Assembly (NCBI RefSeq): GCF_964213995.1
Contig: NW_027590142.1
Coordinates: forward strand, 868,001 to 932,000
Length of the DNA stretch: 64,000 nucleotides
Origin: Mustelus asterias
Lineage: Eukaryota
Reading direction: 5' to 3'
The notes beneath the pieces were generated by a model, which searched no databases, had not been told where the DNA came from, and saw only the letters and a list, made by a program, of their open reading frames with translations. How positions within the stretch are numbered: the first letter of the stretch is position 1; each line of letters opens with the position of its first letter. The position numbers and the translations under genes were made by a program. This document shows, piece by piece, positions 4,691 through 63,429 of this stretch.

Positions 4691-4990
4691 TGGCACCGTC
4701 TCTGCCCACTCTCTATAGCCTGGTCTCCTCCTGTCAGCAACACAGCTCCGACGGCTCCGTCACCTACAGCTGTTTGGCGATGGACTACTCTCCAGATGTC
4801 TCCAAACTGACCTGGAAGAAAAATGGGCAGCCGATCACCACTGGGTTTAAGACTTACCCGTCAGTGAGAAACACGAAGGGAACCTACACCCTGACCAGCC
4901 AATTAACCATCAACGACTCAGAGGGAGACTGCAGCAAAATCGACTGTGAGGTTCGACACAGCGGCTCAGTCAAGAGCATTGGAATGCACT
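4691..4990 (+). CDS. IGHM: IgM heavy chain CH1 exon
   Basis: ttcccag acceptor and gtaagt donor, phase 1. Translates (V)[16 protein letters not shown]...[10 protein letters not shown]...WKKNG...YPSVRN...DCEVRHSGS, typical of shark Cmu1 including the light-chain-linking Cys. Confidence 0.92.
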
Positions 4991-5129
4991 GTAAGTGTTG
5001 TGGAACCTGGGCAAGACAAGGATGCGCTGATTGAACTGTATAAGGTCTTCATTATAACTGATTTGTCGCACACTGAAAAATTTGAATTAGGCAAAATCCA
5101 GGTAAGTGTCTACTGACCGAAACGTTGCT

Positions 5130-5880
5130 CAGAACCAAAGAACAACAGAAATGTTGCTGTGCAGAATCAGCCCATTTAGCCCATCATATCTGTTCTATCC
5201 GAATGGGAGAACGAATAAATGAGCCAGACATTTTAAACCCATTTTCCAGCCCTTGCTCCGTAGCATTGCAGGTTACAGCATTTGAGATGCAGACCCAGAT
5301 ACCTTTTAAATGACCATGCTCCCTGGTAATGGAGCCGTCCACTTGGGGAATGAATTATTTCTGCCTACGTCACTTATAATTTTGTGAACCACAATTACGT
5401 CACGCCTCAGCCTTCTATTTCTAAGGAGAACAACCCCTGCCTATCCAATCTCGCCTCATGGCAGTAATTTTCAGGCCCTGGAAACATTCTTGTAAACCTT
5501 ATCTGTCTCCAGAGTCAGTACGTCATTCCTGCAACGTGGTGACCAGAACTGTACAGCAAACTCCAAACGTGGCCTAACTAGTGTTTTATGCAGCTCCATC
5601 ATCGCATCACTGTTTTTGTATTACATACCTCACGTAATAGAGGAATTTATCCGATATGTTTTCTTGATCAACTTGTCCAGCTGCCCGACCATCGACAAGG
5701 ACCTTTGGACATGCTTTCCAAGGTCTTGCATTTCCTCAATCCCTCTCAACCTTCCATTTTATTGACTATTCCTTTGCTTTTTTTTCCCTCCCCAAATGCA
5801 TTGTATGGCACTTTTGACGTTTGAATTCCATTCACCGTTTCCCTACCAATTCAACCAAACCATGGATATAATTCTCAAAT
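5130..5880 (-). mobile_element. Degenerate CR1 LINE 3' fragment in the CH1-CH2 intron
   Basis: Contains GGTGACCAGAACTGTACA...GTGGCCTAAC, homologous to the C-terminal CR1 RT region of other copies. Confidence 0.65.
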
Positions 5881-5968
5881 TGGCAGCTATGGTGTTAAAA
5901 TAAAAGAACTAGTTTTAATTGTTGTCAATTGAATCTTCAAGTAACGTCTAAACATGTGTTTGTTGAAG

Positions 5969-6274
5969 GTGACATCCCGCCAACCGTTATCCTCACCGTG
6001 AGTTCCAGTGAAGAAATCACAAGCAGACAATTTGCAACCATCGTCTGTTCAATCATCGATTTCCAGCCAAAGTCAATGACGGTGAAGTGGCTGAAGAATG
6101 GACAACCCATGGATTCAGGAATTGTCACCTCTCCTGCCTATGAAGTGAACGGAAACTTCTCGGCGAGCAGTCGGCTGACAGTCTCCGCTCGGGAATGGTT
6201 CAGCAAAGTAGTCTATACCTGCCAGGTCACTCATCAAGGATTCACCCAGAGTCAGAACATCAGCGGATCTCTGG
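5969..6274 (+). CDS. IGHM: IgM CH2 exon
   Basis: tgttgaag acceptor and gtaaga donor, phase 1. C1-set domain DIPPTVILT...[10 protein letters not shown]...WLKNG...YTCQVTH. Confidence 0.92.
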
Positions 6275-7196
6275 GTAAGAGACTCAAACTGAGGAAAAAA
6301 ATAAATCATTTGGATGTTAATCGGAATTAGGGATCTATTAACGTTAGTACAAAGCATAGAACAACTTCTAATTTACTGTCATGTGGTTTGCTGCATTAAG
6401 ACAGTGCCCCATTCAGAATTTCATCACAACAGCAATTTTTGTTATTCCTCCATGAGATGTGCATTTACTTCCTAGCCCTGAGGGTAGTTAAGTGTCAACC
6501 ACATTGCTGTGGATCTGGAGTCACACGCATGCGAGGCCAGATAAAGACAGCAGATTTACTTTTCCAAAGGGCATTCGTGAAACAGTTGGGCTTTCACAAC
6601 AACGGCTTCATGATGATCATTTGACTTTTAGTTATAGATTTTTATTAAATTCAAATTTCACGATTTGCAGTGGTGAGATTTGAATCCGTGTCTCTGCAAT
6701 TAGGCTCTTGTTCTCGGTCTCTGGATTACAAGTTCCTTGACAATACCACTGCCTCCCCTTCAATGAGTGTTTTTTCTATTTTGAAGGAACATAGTGAGTG
6801 AGGTGGCCTTGATGTCAGCTTTTTCCGGAGACAGCTGGTAAGGTTTGGAAGACAGAGGTGTCAGACTGTTTCACAGGTCACAGCACAGGGGTAAAATGTT
6901 GGAAAGTGCATTCACCCTATTTATAAATCAATGGCAAGCACTTGTTCCTGAGTTCGGGCATGGTATATTTGTTTGGGAATGCTGCAATGTTGATTCATGA
7001 GAATGATACTGCTGCTAAAATATTTTAATAAAGAGAATAATTTCGCAGAGCAAGCTGGTTTGCCATCGTCCATAGACGTTTTTAGGCGATAGTTAGAGGT
7101 TGATATCTCGAGGGCGACTTTATTTCCTTGTGGCTGAATGCTGCTGTCCTCCTTCTGAAAAGGGAACCAGGTTTGATTTTCATTTGTCATTCACAG

Positions 7197-7505
7197 GTCC
7201 TTCCCAGTGCCCTGATTCCACAGTGACGATACAGCCCCCGCCAATAGAACAGGTCTTACTGGAGGCAACAGTGACCTTAACCTGCATCATTTCTAATGCT
7301 CCCTATGGAGTCAACGTGTCCTGGATCCGAGACAGGAAGTGTTTGAAATCAGAGATTGCCGAAAAGCCTGGAGCGGATCCTGACAGCGTGGTCAGCAATT
7401 TAAACATCTCGACACAAGCCTGGCTGAGTGCGGCTGTGTTTGACTGCGTGGTGAGCCATCAAGGTCTACCGACTCCTTTAAGAAAATCCATCCACAAGGA
7501 AACAG
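7197..7505 (+). CDS. IGHM: IgM CH3 exon
   Basis: ttcacag acceptor and gtgagc donor. Translates [30 protein letters not shown]...STQAWLS...[12 protein letters not shown]. Confidence 0.92.
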
Positions 7506-7993
7506 GTGAGCTGAGAGATTGAAGCAATAAATGCGTTACTGTGTCTATTTCCAGTGCAAGTGTAATGGTCAGTGTTTAGTATTCAGTGCATTAATGGTCT
7601 CCTCTTTTTGGAACCTCTACTAGCTAAACACTCTGGGCCTGTAGACTTTTTATGGGGGAAATTTGATGTGTTAATGAATTAAAAGTGAACTGAAGGCGAT
7701 GGCATTGTGTTCAGATGGTGTAAGGAGGGAGGCGTCTGGTGTGGAGCATAACAAGCAACACAGCGCAGTTGGGCCGAATAGCCTGATTCCGTGCCGTAAT
7801 CTTTCTGAAACGTTCCAGTCCAATCCCGTGAGTTACTTCAGAAAACGATTGTGTTCCCTTCTCTAACAAGCTGGAAGTAAAAAAAAACCATTTAAAATCG
7901 AAAGCAAAGCACATTTTTTCTGATATCCAACCAGCAGCTTCATTGTATCTGGAATACTCCAGTTTATTGACATTTATTGTACATTTTCTGCAG

Positions 7994-8385
7994 ATCCAAA
8001 TCTGCGGGAACCGTCCGTGTCAGTCCTCCTGCCCTCGGCAGAAGAAGTCTCCATTCAGAGATTCGTCTCCCTCAGCTGCTTAGTGAGAGGTTTCGCCCCC
8101 CGAGAGATCTTCGTCAAGTGGACCGTCAATGACAAGCCGGTGAATCCCAGGAACTACAAGAACACCGAGGTGATGGCGGAGAATGGCAATAGCTCCTTCT
8201 TCATATACAGCTTATTATCCATTGCAGCAGAGGAGTGGTCCAGCGGCGCTTCTTATTCCTGTGTGGTGGGACATGAAGCCATCCCCTTGAAGATCATCAA
8301 CAGAACGGTTGATAAATCCAGCGGTAAACCCAGTTTTGTGAACATTTCTCTTGCACTGATGGACACCGTTAATTCATGTCAATGA
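7994..8385 (+). CDS. IGHM: IgM CH4 exon plus secretory tailpiece
   Basis: ttctgcag acceptor. Translates [17 protein letters not shown]...[13 protein letters not shown], has an internal donor G|GTAAAC after 8323 for the membrane form, and a tailpiece [20 protein letters not shown] with an N-glycan site and penultimate Cys. Confidence 0.95.
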
Positions 8386-62153: not shown

Positions 62154-62302
62154 GTGGGTACTGATCACACTAAACTATATTGTGTGGATTGAATATAAAG
62201 CTGCCCCAGTCCATCCCAATTACAGACACTGTCTGGGGTTTTAGCCCCGTTGTGTGGTTCAGCTCTGATGATCCTTTAAACTCTCTTGTGTTTAATTTCC
62301 AG

Positions 62303-62591
62303 GATCTTTCAGTCAGTCAGTGACACAGAGCCCGGCAGCGGTGACCAGGAAGGAATGTCAGTCCCTCACCATCACCTGTGTTTTCTATGGTGGATTCTAC
62401 GCTCGTGCTTTGGAGAGGGCGGAATTCTTCAAACAAACACAGACCGGAACGGAGCGGGAGTGGATCTCCGGCGGAGGGAGATTTGTTGTGTCGGTGAATA
62501 AAGCAGAAAAGAAATTTTCGTTGGAAATTCGGGATGTGAGAGTTGAAGACACCGCCACCTATTTCTGTAAAGCTCATTACAAAGGAGACGG
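62303..62591 (+). CDS. NAR-TCR variable segment (IgNAR-like V of the double-V TCR-delta chain)
   Basis: QSVTQSPAAVTRKECQSLTITCVFYGGFYARALERAEFFKQTQTGTEREWISGGGRFVVSVNKAEKKFSLEIRDVRVEDTATYFCKAHYKGDG. VNAR-type V with no CDR2 (ExIS.GGR), an extra FR1 Cys (ECQ), and Phe in place of the FR2 Trp. Confidence 0.85.
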
Positions 62592-62629
62592 CACAGTGAT
62601 GGGCCTCGGCTTCCCATCATACTAAAACT
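62592..62629 (+). other. V 3' recombination signal (23-class, 22-bp spacer)
   Basis: CACAGTG - 22 nt - ACTAAAACT. Confidence 0.85.
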
Positions 62630-62955
62630 CTCACTGAAGATTTTCACATAAACAAATGAAAAAGCGGAGTTAATCTTCCCTGAAACCCGCACAGTTCCAT
62701 CGCACACCGTCAATCCCACAGTCACGTTTATAATGAGGATTTGATTATTACCGTTAACATTCTGAGTGTTTTAAACAAGGAGTGTGTGCGGAAGCTGACA
62801 TCTTTCCCGGGTTAGGTGTTGATGAATGAAGAATGGAAATGACTGATCCCAGTTACAAACCCAAACAAAAGATGGGATCATCGTCTCTCAGCTGGAACTG
62901 GGAACCGCAGTCCCCGCTGTTTAATTAATGTCCCTACATCTCACACAGTATCTGG

Positions 62956-63028
62956 GGTTTTGATGCTAAATTATAACACTGTGTAAATGGTTAGGAGAGT
63001 CACAGTGAAAAGAAGCTGAGCAAATACC
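62956..63028 (+). other. D segment (62984-63000, TAAATGGTTAGGAGAGT) flanked by 12/12 RSSs
   Basis: GGTTTTGAT-12-CACTGTG, 17-bp D, CACAGTG-12-GCAAATACC. One stop-free forward frame (KWLGE). Confidence 0.88.
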
Positions 63029-63339
63029 TGTGCACAATTACAATATACATTCGCAGGGCCCAGAGAGAGAATTATGGATTGATGTTATTAGCGCTGCAAT
63101 CTGGATTAATTACATTGCACTTTCCATCACTCACATCTTTCTTTGATATTTTTCTCAGTTAATATGAAGCGACTATCTCCTCCCTGGGGATATTTACTGA
63201 GAACGCGGGGCCTCAAAAAGAACAGTTTGAACCGACAGAGACTTCAAAACATTGAATAATATTTATTGATTTAAATCCCCCGAATAATTGGGAACTTCCA
63301 AATGACTGTGATGATTTCCCGTCAAGTTGAGTAGTCGGT

Positions 63340-63377
63340 AGTTCTTGTACGGGGAGACTGAGATCGGTATCACTGTG
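63340..63377 (+). other. J 5' recombination signal (23-class, 22-bp spacer)
   Basis: AGTTCTTGT - 22 nt - CACTGTG. Confidence 0.85.
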
Positions 63378-63429
63378 TACAAATGGTATGATGCCGATGG
63401 CTCAGGGACGGTGGTGACTGTCACAGCCG
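63378..63429 (+). CDS. NAR-TCR J segment
   Basis: YKWYDADGSGTVVTVTA followed by a phase-1 donor gtaagt; G-x-G-T motif with Asp in the F/W position. Confidence 0.88.

Follow-up and report, generated by a model that had tools for sequence, protein, structure and literature searches.

Reviews describe the TCR genes of sharks as translocons and their Ig genes as miniclusters (PMC6795676, PMC12227049). In the elasmobranch antigen receptor complex (AgRC), as far as the accessible parts of its description go, IgM clusters are interleaved with TCR alpha/delta V exons and NAR-TCR V exons over megabases, the TCR alpha/delta genes form a translocon, no run of C-delta genes is tabulated in the four species covered, and Table S1 marks which entries are germline-joined (PMC12227049). 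NAR-TCR is a doubly rearranging shark TCR-delta (PMC12227049, PMC5931798, PMC6795676), with a NAR V-D-J lying upstream of a supporting V-delta and spliced to a delta constant region; the cassettes known from these sources share one C-delta. Marsupial and monotreme TCR-mu (TRM) consists of repeated clusters with two V domains and their own constant gene, dispersed in platypus as V1-D-J1-V2-J2-C clusters (PMC7615758). Use of VH-delta is reported from birds, amphibians, coelacanth, and platypus, and sharks have IgHV-TCR-delta trans-rearrangements and TAILV (PMC7615758, PMC12227049). Germline-joined shark Ig genes carry partial joins of the VD-J type with few or no added bases (PMC2193156, PMC5192425).

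The window, a stretch of 64,000 nucleotides of Mustelus asterias DNA, resembles the AgRC in having IgM and NAR-TCR genes side by side. Within it, and on the same scaffold (C110) before its start and past its end, lie the following features:

C110:859635-860556, leader, fused VH-D1D2, and JH of the window IgM, 7.4-8.4 kb before the window start
4691..4990, + strand, Cmu1 exon, open, with proper splice ends
5969..6274, + strand, Cmu2 exon, open, with proper splice ends
7197..7505, + strand, Cmu3 exon, open, with proper splice ends
7994..8385, + strand, Cmu4 exon with secretory tail (Pfam C1-set for Cmu4), with proper splice ends
13176..13306, + strand, IgM transmembrane (TM) exon, open, with proper splice ends
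23038..23900, + strand, broken rhodopsin-family GPCR copy in two frames, a passenger of the duplicated segment
37612..38643, + strand, intact single-exon rhodopsin-family GPCR frame (Pfam 7tm_1)
62111..62153, + strand, NAR-TCR leader exon, NAR-type
62303..62629, + strand, NAR-TCR V exon with 22-bp-spacer signal (V itself 62303-62591, Pfam V-set)
62984..63000, + strand, single NAR-TCR D with 12-bp signals on both sides (12/12)
63378..63429, + strand, NAR-TCR J with DGSG motif and 22-bp-spacer signal
C110:933625, supporting V-delta, past the window end, 2.2 kb after the NAR J
C110:954856, Ig-like V, past the window end
C110:960254, D-delta, past the window end
C110:960389-972540, J-deltas, past the window end
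C110:979912-983517, C-delta of the cassette's own unit, past the window end

The original prediction placed open Cmu1-4, secretory, and TM exons about 49 kb from a co-oriented NAR-TCR V-D-J cassette with intact recombination signals, and we measure 48.8 kb from the end of the TM exon to the NAR leader, both on the + strand. Because both genes are multi-exon with spliceable frames, they are not chance matches; spliced in silico, the IgM exons give open secreted and membrane forms, each with a single terminal stop. The adjacency is not new, as IgM lies beside NAR-TCR V in the great white shark entries of Table S1 (PMC12227049). The predicted continuity of the scaffold across a stretch of 142 N also held: the flanks are colinear in three other copies (C104, C773, and an inverted copy on C110), with 142, 144, and 136 bases between them, and the window differs from C104 by 0-1 mismatch per kb on both sides, which rules out a misjoin. 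One other N run, 200 long, occurs in the fetched DNA. C104 and C773 diverge from the shared segment at about 42-57 kb of the window, and their fetched DNA holds no NAR cassette, so the cassette stands behind two of the four copies of the window IgM (the window and the inverted C110 copy). C221 provides an independent link of the GPCR segment to the cassette. The intact GPCR frame is found in five near-identical copies of the window segment, and the passengers carried by duplicated segments include GPCR and zinc-finger genes.

The NAR-type V has its own D and J, with signals compatible under the 12/23 rule, and the cassette opens a 53-kb unit that closes with a D-delta, J-deltas, and an open C-delta belonging to it. 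The supporting V-delta lies downstream of the NAR J in splice phase, in a two-V layout that matches database proteins P0039 and P0045. The supporting V of NAR-TCR is without a leader exon; a leader scan between the NAR J and the supporting V, which was false-positive in two of three controls, returned a single weak candidate whose donor is poor. No IgNAR constant exons were found in the 100 kb read downstream, where a delta constant region lies instead, and the supporting V-delta, D-delta, J-deltas, and C-delta rule out IgNAR, as had been foreseen. As in the known NAR-TCR system, the NAR V-D-J is predicted to be spliced ahead of the supporting V-delta to a delta constant region. Within a single 53-kb unit, both the NAR V-D-J and the supporting V-D-J would be rearranged in a T cell and then spliced to the C-delta of that unit, as in TCR-mu clusters, and NAR cassettes that lack a C-delta would draw on a neighbouring unit.

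The IgM gene is less conventional. The original prediction took it to be apparently functional, with a VH-D-D-JH upstream; the leader, VH, D1D2, and JH are there, but V, D1, and D2 are already fused and end in a 12-bp signal, leaving only the JH join, whereas the split VH-D1-D2-JH form is expected of a functional IgM minicluster. The JH motif of this family is CGQG instead of WGxG, and functionality is doubtful because Cys replaces the invariant Trp in all four copies, against Trp in 6/6 other IgM clusters fetched. Fused to D1D2 and carrying a 12-bp signal, the window VH is unable under the 12/23 rule to join D-delta or J-delta, and nearby it has two legal partners only, the JH of its own cluster and the NAR-TCR J. 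From its position 71 kb ahead of the NAR J, the VH-DD segment could be joined to that J in T cells, which could place VH atop the supporting V-delta in a TCR-mu-like three-domain chain.

The window unit is one of many. Open C-delta genes gave 19 matches on 17 contigs (among 73 candidates scored); the copies are 92-99.9% alike, all 19 are open in the Ig, connecting-peptide, and TM exons, and they fall by DNA identity into 15 groups at 99.5%, 11 at 99%, and 3 at 95%. Duplicate haplotype pieces are kept in the assembly, so 19 overstates the haploid number, for which the minimum shown is 3 and our estimate about 10; scaffold C71 alone carries three C-delta genes, each less than 99% identical to the other two, and two alleles could not account for three. 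A co-oriented NAR V lies at most 60 kb upstream of C-delta in 15 of the 19, so that here, unlike the known cassettes that share one C-delta, 15 cassettes each have their own close behind; 40 of 55 NAR V matches have none. These 55 were kept from 85 matches (fragments and those under 60% identity were dropped) and 105 Cmu4 exons from 112 (six at 40-43% and one fragment were dropped), and because 150 of about 500 candidates were scored in both searches, both counts are lower bounds. The units read were those on C110 and C71:7.09-7.14 Mb and, in part, C71:12.22-12.27 Mb and C119. Database names suggest that the repeated constant gene is C-alpha, which is ruled out by sequence identity (59% to a catshark delta-type model, 34-38% to the C-alpha of the same genome) and by the presence of a D segment. 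The closest sequences in an alignment of constant regions containing no TCR-mu are shark delta-type models; a protein tree, uninformative on the root, places C-alpha on a long branch inside the C-delta group of its own genome with weak support. C-alpha itself gave only two matches among 57 candidates, and both J-alpha/C-alpha loci sit elsewhere, on scaffolds other than that of the window unit. The 104 kb preceding the first J-alpha of C71 hold no V, D, or C-delta, and no canonical C-delta was found on C546, where a 200-N stretch takes up that place and could conceal one; the order of a single translocon, one C-delta ahead of a J-alpha array and C-alpha, is thus not seen, the 19 C-delta genes lying elsewhere. 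In contrast to the AgRC, each of the 19 open C-delta genes closes a unit of its own, apart from the J-alpha/C-alpha of C71. In other sharks, a weak protein search returned single C-delta models in four named species, as well as unnamed entries, and two models on one 1.7-Mb contig of Heptranchias.

Several segments here are already joined, and the joints resemble those reported for germline-joined shark Ig genes in being of the VD-J type with few or no added bases: 0-1 in all five joints computed, and 0 by eye in the D1-D2 joint of C104. Germline Ig joints are described as showing little TdT activity (PMC2193156) and most somatic shark TCR-alpha joins as containing N/P bases (PMC5931798); partial IgH joins are also reported as carried somatically by shark thymocytes (PMC2435157). 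Unlike in the described Ig genes, joined and split forms here are 99.9% alike, and the joins are stepwise (D1-D2, then V-DD) and reach TCR segments and the Ig/TCR boundary. Three contigs with C-delta genes 1-4% apart share one identical V-to-D-delta joint, and D-delta is already joined to an upstream segment in 7 of 19 units, in two of them to a V with stops. The window V-DD joint appears in short-read contigs of run X1 at a depth of 17.6 versus 67.3 for the split form, depth there not being a copy number and X1 possibly being the source of the assembly; run X3 has a different V-DD joint, and none is listed for X4 or X6. The joint on C850 could be somatic or allelic, since its downstream half has an undeleted 99.93% twin. 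That a signal joint at C71:14.377 Mb and a coding joint at C71:11.02 Mb are the two ends of one inversion is unsupported, the signal differing, as judged by eye on the translation, from what follows the same V family on C546.

The Ig/TCR boundary is crossed on C138. There, an intact upstream region, leader, donor, and open VH with a good 23-bp signal precede a joint of a whole IgM D1 to D-delta, with one shared base and none added, followed by four J-delta segments found and an open C-delta; the signals (VH 23-bp, D 12/23, J-delta 12) give the layout of a VH-delta locus. As in the VH-delta systems, an antibody VH stands in front of D-delta, J-delta, and C-delta, but the reported shark IgHV-TCR-delta chimeras are T-cell rearrangement products and this fusion is in genomic DNA. 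The VH is 99-100% identical to those of four split IgM clusters and so is a current IgM VH, which makes both parent layout and junction readable. A paralog at C71:7.06-7.14 Mb still has the undeleted layout; its D1 and D-delta lie 55.3 kb apart, and it is 93-99% identical to C138 on either side of the joint. Just downstream of the joint the best non-self match is 97%, upstream the four split copies compared reach at most 97.9% beyond about 11 kb, no undeleted twin was found among the matches examined, and the joint occurs once in the assembly. From its sequence, the fusion is likely a germline, inherited recombinase cut: the D1 (23-bp signal) of a co-oriented upstream IgM cluster can join D-delta (12-bp signal) by deletion, and two further joins would yield a predicted VH-bearing delta chain.

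Given the observed layout, open C-delta copies, and joints, we hold with a probability of about 70% that the window is a joint in a complex where IgM miniclusters alternate with numerous self-contained units of TCR-delta (NAR V-D-J, supporting V-delta, Ig-like V, D-delta, J-deltas, and own C-delta), which recent segmental duplication has likely multiplied and germ-line recombinase activity has likely remodelled. More tentatively, at somewhat less than even odds, TCR-delta in this shark lineage may have given up the translocon form for some ten working miniclusters that are independent of TCR-alpha, with germ-line RAG still making heritable genes, including a VH-D1/D-delta-J-delta-C-delta gene cut from an IgM-plus-NAR-TCR pair. 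Alternatively, the units could be real by-products of runaway segmental duplication, mostly silent, and C138 a somatic T-cell product or dead accident. The copies are young, travel with GPCR and zinc-finger passengers, and could stay open without selection, and D-delta is spent in several units; we nevertheless consider this less likely, as the most divergent C-delta group (82-86% protein identity) is likewise open throughout and its TM exon hardly varies, and C138 retains upstream region, leader, donor, open VH, and good signals and has no undeleted twin among the matches. In an ordinary arrangement, IgM clusters would be scattered among the V genes of one TCR alpha/delta translocon, the additional C-delta genes would be duplicates between haplotypes or artefacts of assembly, and the joints would come from lymphocyte reads. 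This would fit the great white shark, where IgM lies within 39-110 kb of NAR-TCR V models, the description of TCR alpha/delta as a translocon (PMC12227049), the near-identical contig pairs in this assembly, and a signal joint at C110:113.7 kb bridged by none of the short-read contigs listed, but it is improbable in view of the three distinct C-delta genes on C71, a group of C-delta copies only about 92% alike, the 11 groups at 99%, the identical joints on diverged contigs, and the depth of the V-DD joint in X1. Least probable is a functional window IgM inside the TCR alpha/delta locus whose VH joins D-delta/J-delta in cis: co-orientation, the D-delta/J-delta/C-delta 100 kb downstream of VH, and a split twin on C110 that keeps the 23-bp VH signal speak for it, but the 12-bp signal of the window copy, the JH Trp-to-Cys change, the J-alpha/C-alpha loci on other scaffolds, and the downstream unit of the inverted C110 twin, itself rearranged, speak against it. 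What survives of that idea is the interleaving of IgM with TCR-delta genes, in one of many delta units rather than the alpha/delta locus, and a finished cis-deletion product in another IgM family, on C138.

The units also recall TCR-mu as described in marsupials and monotremes, in that clusters of two V domains and a separate constant gene are repeated, with germline-joined V and zinc-finger neighbours, but they have a NAR-type tip V, a TCR V as support, and a shark C-delta, in place of a VH-derived tip V with a C-mu-clade constant region, and they are set among IgM genes, three on the TCR-alpha scaffold. The likeness is one of convergent layout, not membership. We found no paper on multiple shark C-delta genes in the literature searched; several C-delta genes or genomic Ig/TCR-delta fusions may have been described in PMC7909615, PMC7039070, PMC1458790, or PMC3222143. 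A cluster-type TCR-delta in a shark blurs the line between translocon and minicluster and would show the TCR-mu layout arising again from TCR-delta by duplication. With joined and split gene pairs 99.9% alike, germ-line RAG activity becomes measurable within one species, and the C138 junction makes the capture of VH by TCR-delta, so far speculative, an event that can be tested by PCR and whose parent can be read. If both the miniclusters and the germ-line RAG activity are real, this shark would offer a present-day example, open to dating, of the step put forward for VH-delta and TCR-mu.

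The IgM constant exons and the NAR-TCR V-D-J cassette of the window stand where the original prediction placed them, all open, their splice sites and signals in good order, and the NAR J is followed by a supporting V-delta, D-delta, J-deltas and a delta-type constant gene.

Features at and around the window (G000:C110:868001-932000 of the 3.68-Gb assembly examined)
C110:859635-860556, before the window start: leader, VH and JH region of the window's IgM
window 23038-23900: rhodopsin-family GPCR, single-exon, broken
window 37612-38643: rhodopsin-family GPCR, single-exon, intact
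C110:933625: supporting V-delta, three stacked signals behind it
between the supporting V-delta and the Ig-like V of the window's unit: V without a good signal
C110:954856: Ig-like V with leader and 23-bp signal
C110:960254: D-delta (12/23)
J-deltas of the window's unit: seven J-like matches, one with a stop, four with scored 12-bp signals
C110:979912-983517: C-delta, open, 49.6 kb beyond the NAR V
elsewhere, on C138, 218.6-197.0 kb, minus strand: VH-D1/D-delta chimera

The constant region of this unit shares 59% identity with a catshark model, by its name probably the IgWV-TCRD entry of Table S1 (PMC12227049), and 48-57% with seven other delta-type database models, against 34-38% for the C-alpha of the same genome. 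Three further copies of the segment argue against a misjoin at the 142-N stretch, being colinear there with 142, 144 and 136 bases in the N position, as does the window's identity to its closest copy, unchanged at that point. The copies on contigs C104 and C773 stop matching the window at roughly 42-57 kb, and no NAR cassette was found within the DNA fetched there; a NAR V follows the segment in the inverted C110 copy and on C221. Between Cmu and the NAR cassette lie the two GPCR genes and, by eye, many reverse-transcriptase-like repeat frames. The intact GPCR travels with the segment in five near-identical copies, and two older paralogs (81% and 59%) lie between IgM genes at C71:19.26-19.27 Mb. 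C2H2 zinc-finger frames occur on both sides of the IgM/TCR-delta unit (C110:796-805 kb and 1026 kb; L015-L017, L020). The frame of the IgM TM exon (window 13176-13306) runs past the splice donor to a stop, and the exon has Cys at a site where other IgM TM exons presumably have Trp. The signals behind the supporting V-delta are three 23-bp signals with a 61-bp period (C110:933931-934090; L001:1931-2090); of 12 supporting V looked at, seven have two or three such signals behind them, and the five already joined to D-delta have none.

This arrangement recurs. A genome search gave 19 C-delta exon matches on 17 contigs, with three open exons in every case and DNA 92-99.9% alike; a 99.5% identity threshold sorts them into 15 groups, 99% into 11 and 95% into 3. 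A co-oriented NAR V lies 16-58 kb upstream of at least 15 of the 19, and a co-oriented Cmu4 lies within 150 kb of at least five; scaffold C71 holds three C-delta among at least 26 Cmu4 and at least 8 NAR V matches. Of the 55 NAR V among the matches listed, 40 lack their own C-delta, and at least 19 have Cmu4 within 100 kb, upstream and co-oriented in at least 8 of those. These counts make the IgM/NAR pair a repeated feature rather than a singular one. Because the assembly retains duplicate haplotype pieces, the haploid C-delta number is uncertain; it is at least 3, with an estimate of about 10. We consider it highly probable (roughly 0.88) that several C-delta loci are real, and somewhat probable that several delta units are expressed. 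In Heptranchias, two delta-type constant models on a single contig hint at a parallel duplication.

C-alpha gave two matches, 74% alike, each behind a J-alpha array. These TCR-alpha loci (L095:9389-9667 and L100:150-419; C-alpha 74-78% alike; 29 J found on C71, more than 100 on C546) are either a duplicated locus or very divergent haplotypes. On C71 the 104 kb ahead of the first J-alpha yielded no V, D or C-delta; C546 has two D segments, their 3' spacers shortened, then a 200-N stretch.

The prediction that the window's IgM is apparently functional, and that its VH could join delta D/J in cis, fared less well. Although open, the VH is already joined to D segments: 447 bases of the 99.9% identical C104 copy are absent at the V-DD joint, which has 2 shared and 0 added bases, and a 12-bp signal now faces JH. 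Under the 12/23 rule a 12-bp signal joins only a 23-bp signal, so that VH-DD is barred from D-delta and J-delta, whose signals available to it are 12-bp ones; its permitted partners are its own JH and the NAR J, which lies 71 kb downstream. The JH tryptophan has a role at the light-chain interface, and function is doubtful because JH reads CGQG in all four copies of this IgM family, as against WGQG in 6/6 others. The single D in split copies of the family is D1 fused to D2, with two junction types among three copies; among six other IgM clusters fetched, D1 and D2 are free in four, and D2 is fused to JH in two (on C143 and C971; L136:7225-7330, L137:5235-5340).

Cis deletion is instead seen on C138, which reads, in order, IgM upstream region, leader, open VH with 23-bp signal, whole IgM D1, D-delta, four identified J-delta and an open C-delta. 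The D1/D-delta joint has one shared and 0 added bases and obeys the 12/23 rule, since the D1 3' signal is 22/23 and the D-delta 5' signal 12. Four split IgM clusters share 99-100% identity with the VH-D1 part. One of them (C71:7.06 Mb) has same-strand Cmu, NAR cassette, supporting V, two Ig-like V, D-delta, J-deltas and C-delta behind it; its D1 and D-delta are 55.3 kb apart, and its identity to C138 is 93-99% on either side of the joint.

Single-copy joints could alternatively be somatic partial joins of lymphocytes, the main rival explanation, and partial IgH joins are indeed common in thymocytes according to part of PMC2435157. A somatic join should leave its parent in the assembly, and no undeleted twin of C138 was found (best match just downstream 97%, C-delta 98.8%; upstream, past about 11 kb, no more than 97.9% among four copies compared). 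The C138 joint is thus likely germ line, and it is fairly probable that it is heritable. Added bases number 0-1 in each of the five joints computed; germline Ig joints likewise have few (excerpts of PMC2193156), and most somatic TCR-alpha joins differ in having added bases (excerpts of PMC5931798). In short-read contigs of run X1, possibly from the assembly's source animal, the window's V-DD joint stands at depth 17.6, the part it skips at 67.3 and the shared D-J spacer at 78.5, depth not being copy number; we would not expect this of a unique somatic join. Run X3, from another sample, has a V-D1-D2 joint that differs from this one and shows no evident added bases; its depth of 16.1 exceeds that of its neighbours (L033:5418-5872). 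No V-DD joint was among the contigs listed for X4 and X6. D-delta is joined to an upstream segment in 7 of 19 units, one such joint being identical on three diverged contigs, and a NAR V fused to D on C110 is split in a 99.7% twin on C71. Two head-to-head signal joints also occur, at C110:113.7 kb and C71:14.377 Mb. The first (C110:113690-114480; L025:3690-4480) pairs the D-delta 12 signal with a NAR V 23 signal and adjoins an inverted D-J spacer, with the NAR V end fused to a J signal in the manner of a hybrid joint; no bridging contig was among the short-read contigs listed. The second (C71:14376797-14376840; L043:6797-6840) has the same kind of D-delta signal and a different V signal.

Linkage of IgM, IgW and IgNAR to TCR alpha/delta and the presence of TCR-type V between IgH clusters are described in sections of PMC12227049, whose great white table has IgM at distances of 39, 42 and 110 kb from models of NAR-TCR, upstream and co-oriented in the 110-kb case; the original finding as written was therefore already known, its observation holding and its interpretation borne out in part. 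No description of multiple shark C-delta or of a genomic IgM-D1/D-delta fusion turned up in the part of the literature searched. Shark TCR has been described as a translocon (portions of PMC12227049 and PMC6795676). The window's locus would work like a TCR-mu-style cluster locus, yet it is not a TRM member; it is a variant form of the shark TCR-delta/NAR-TCR organisation.
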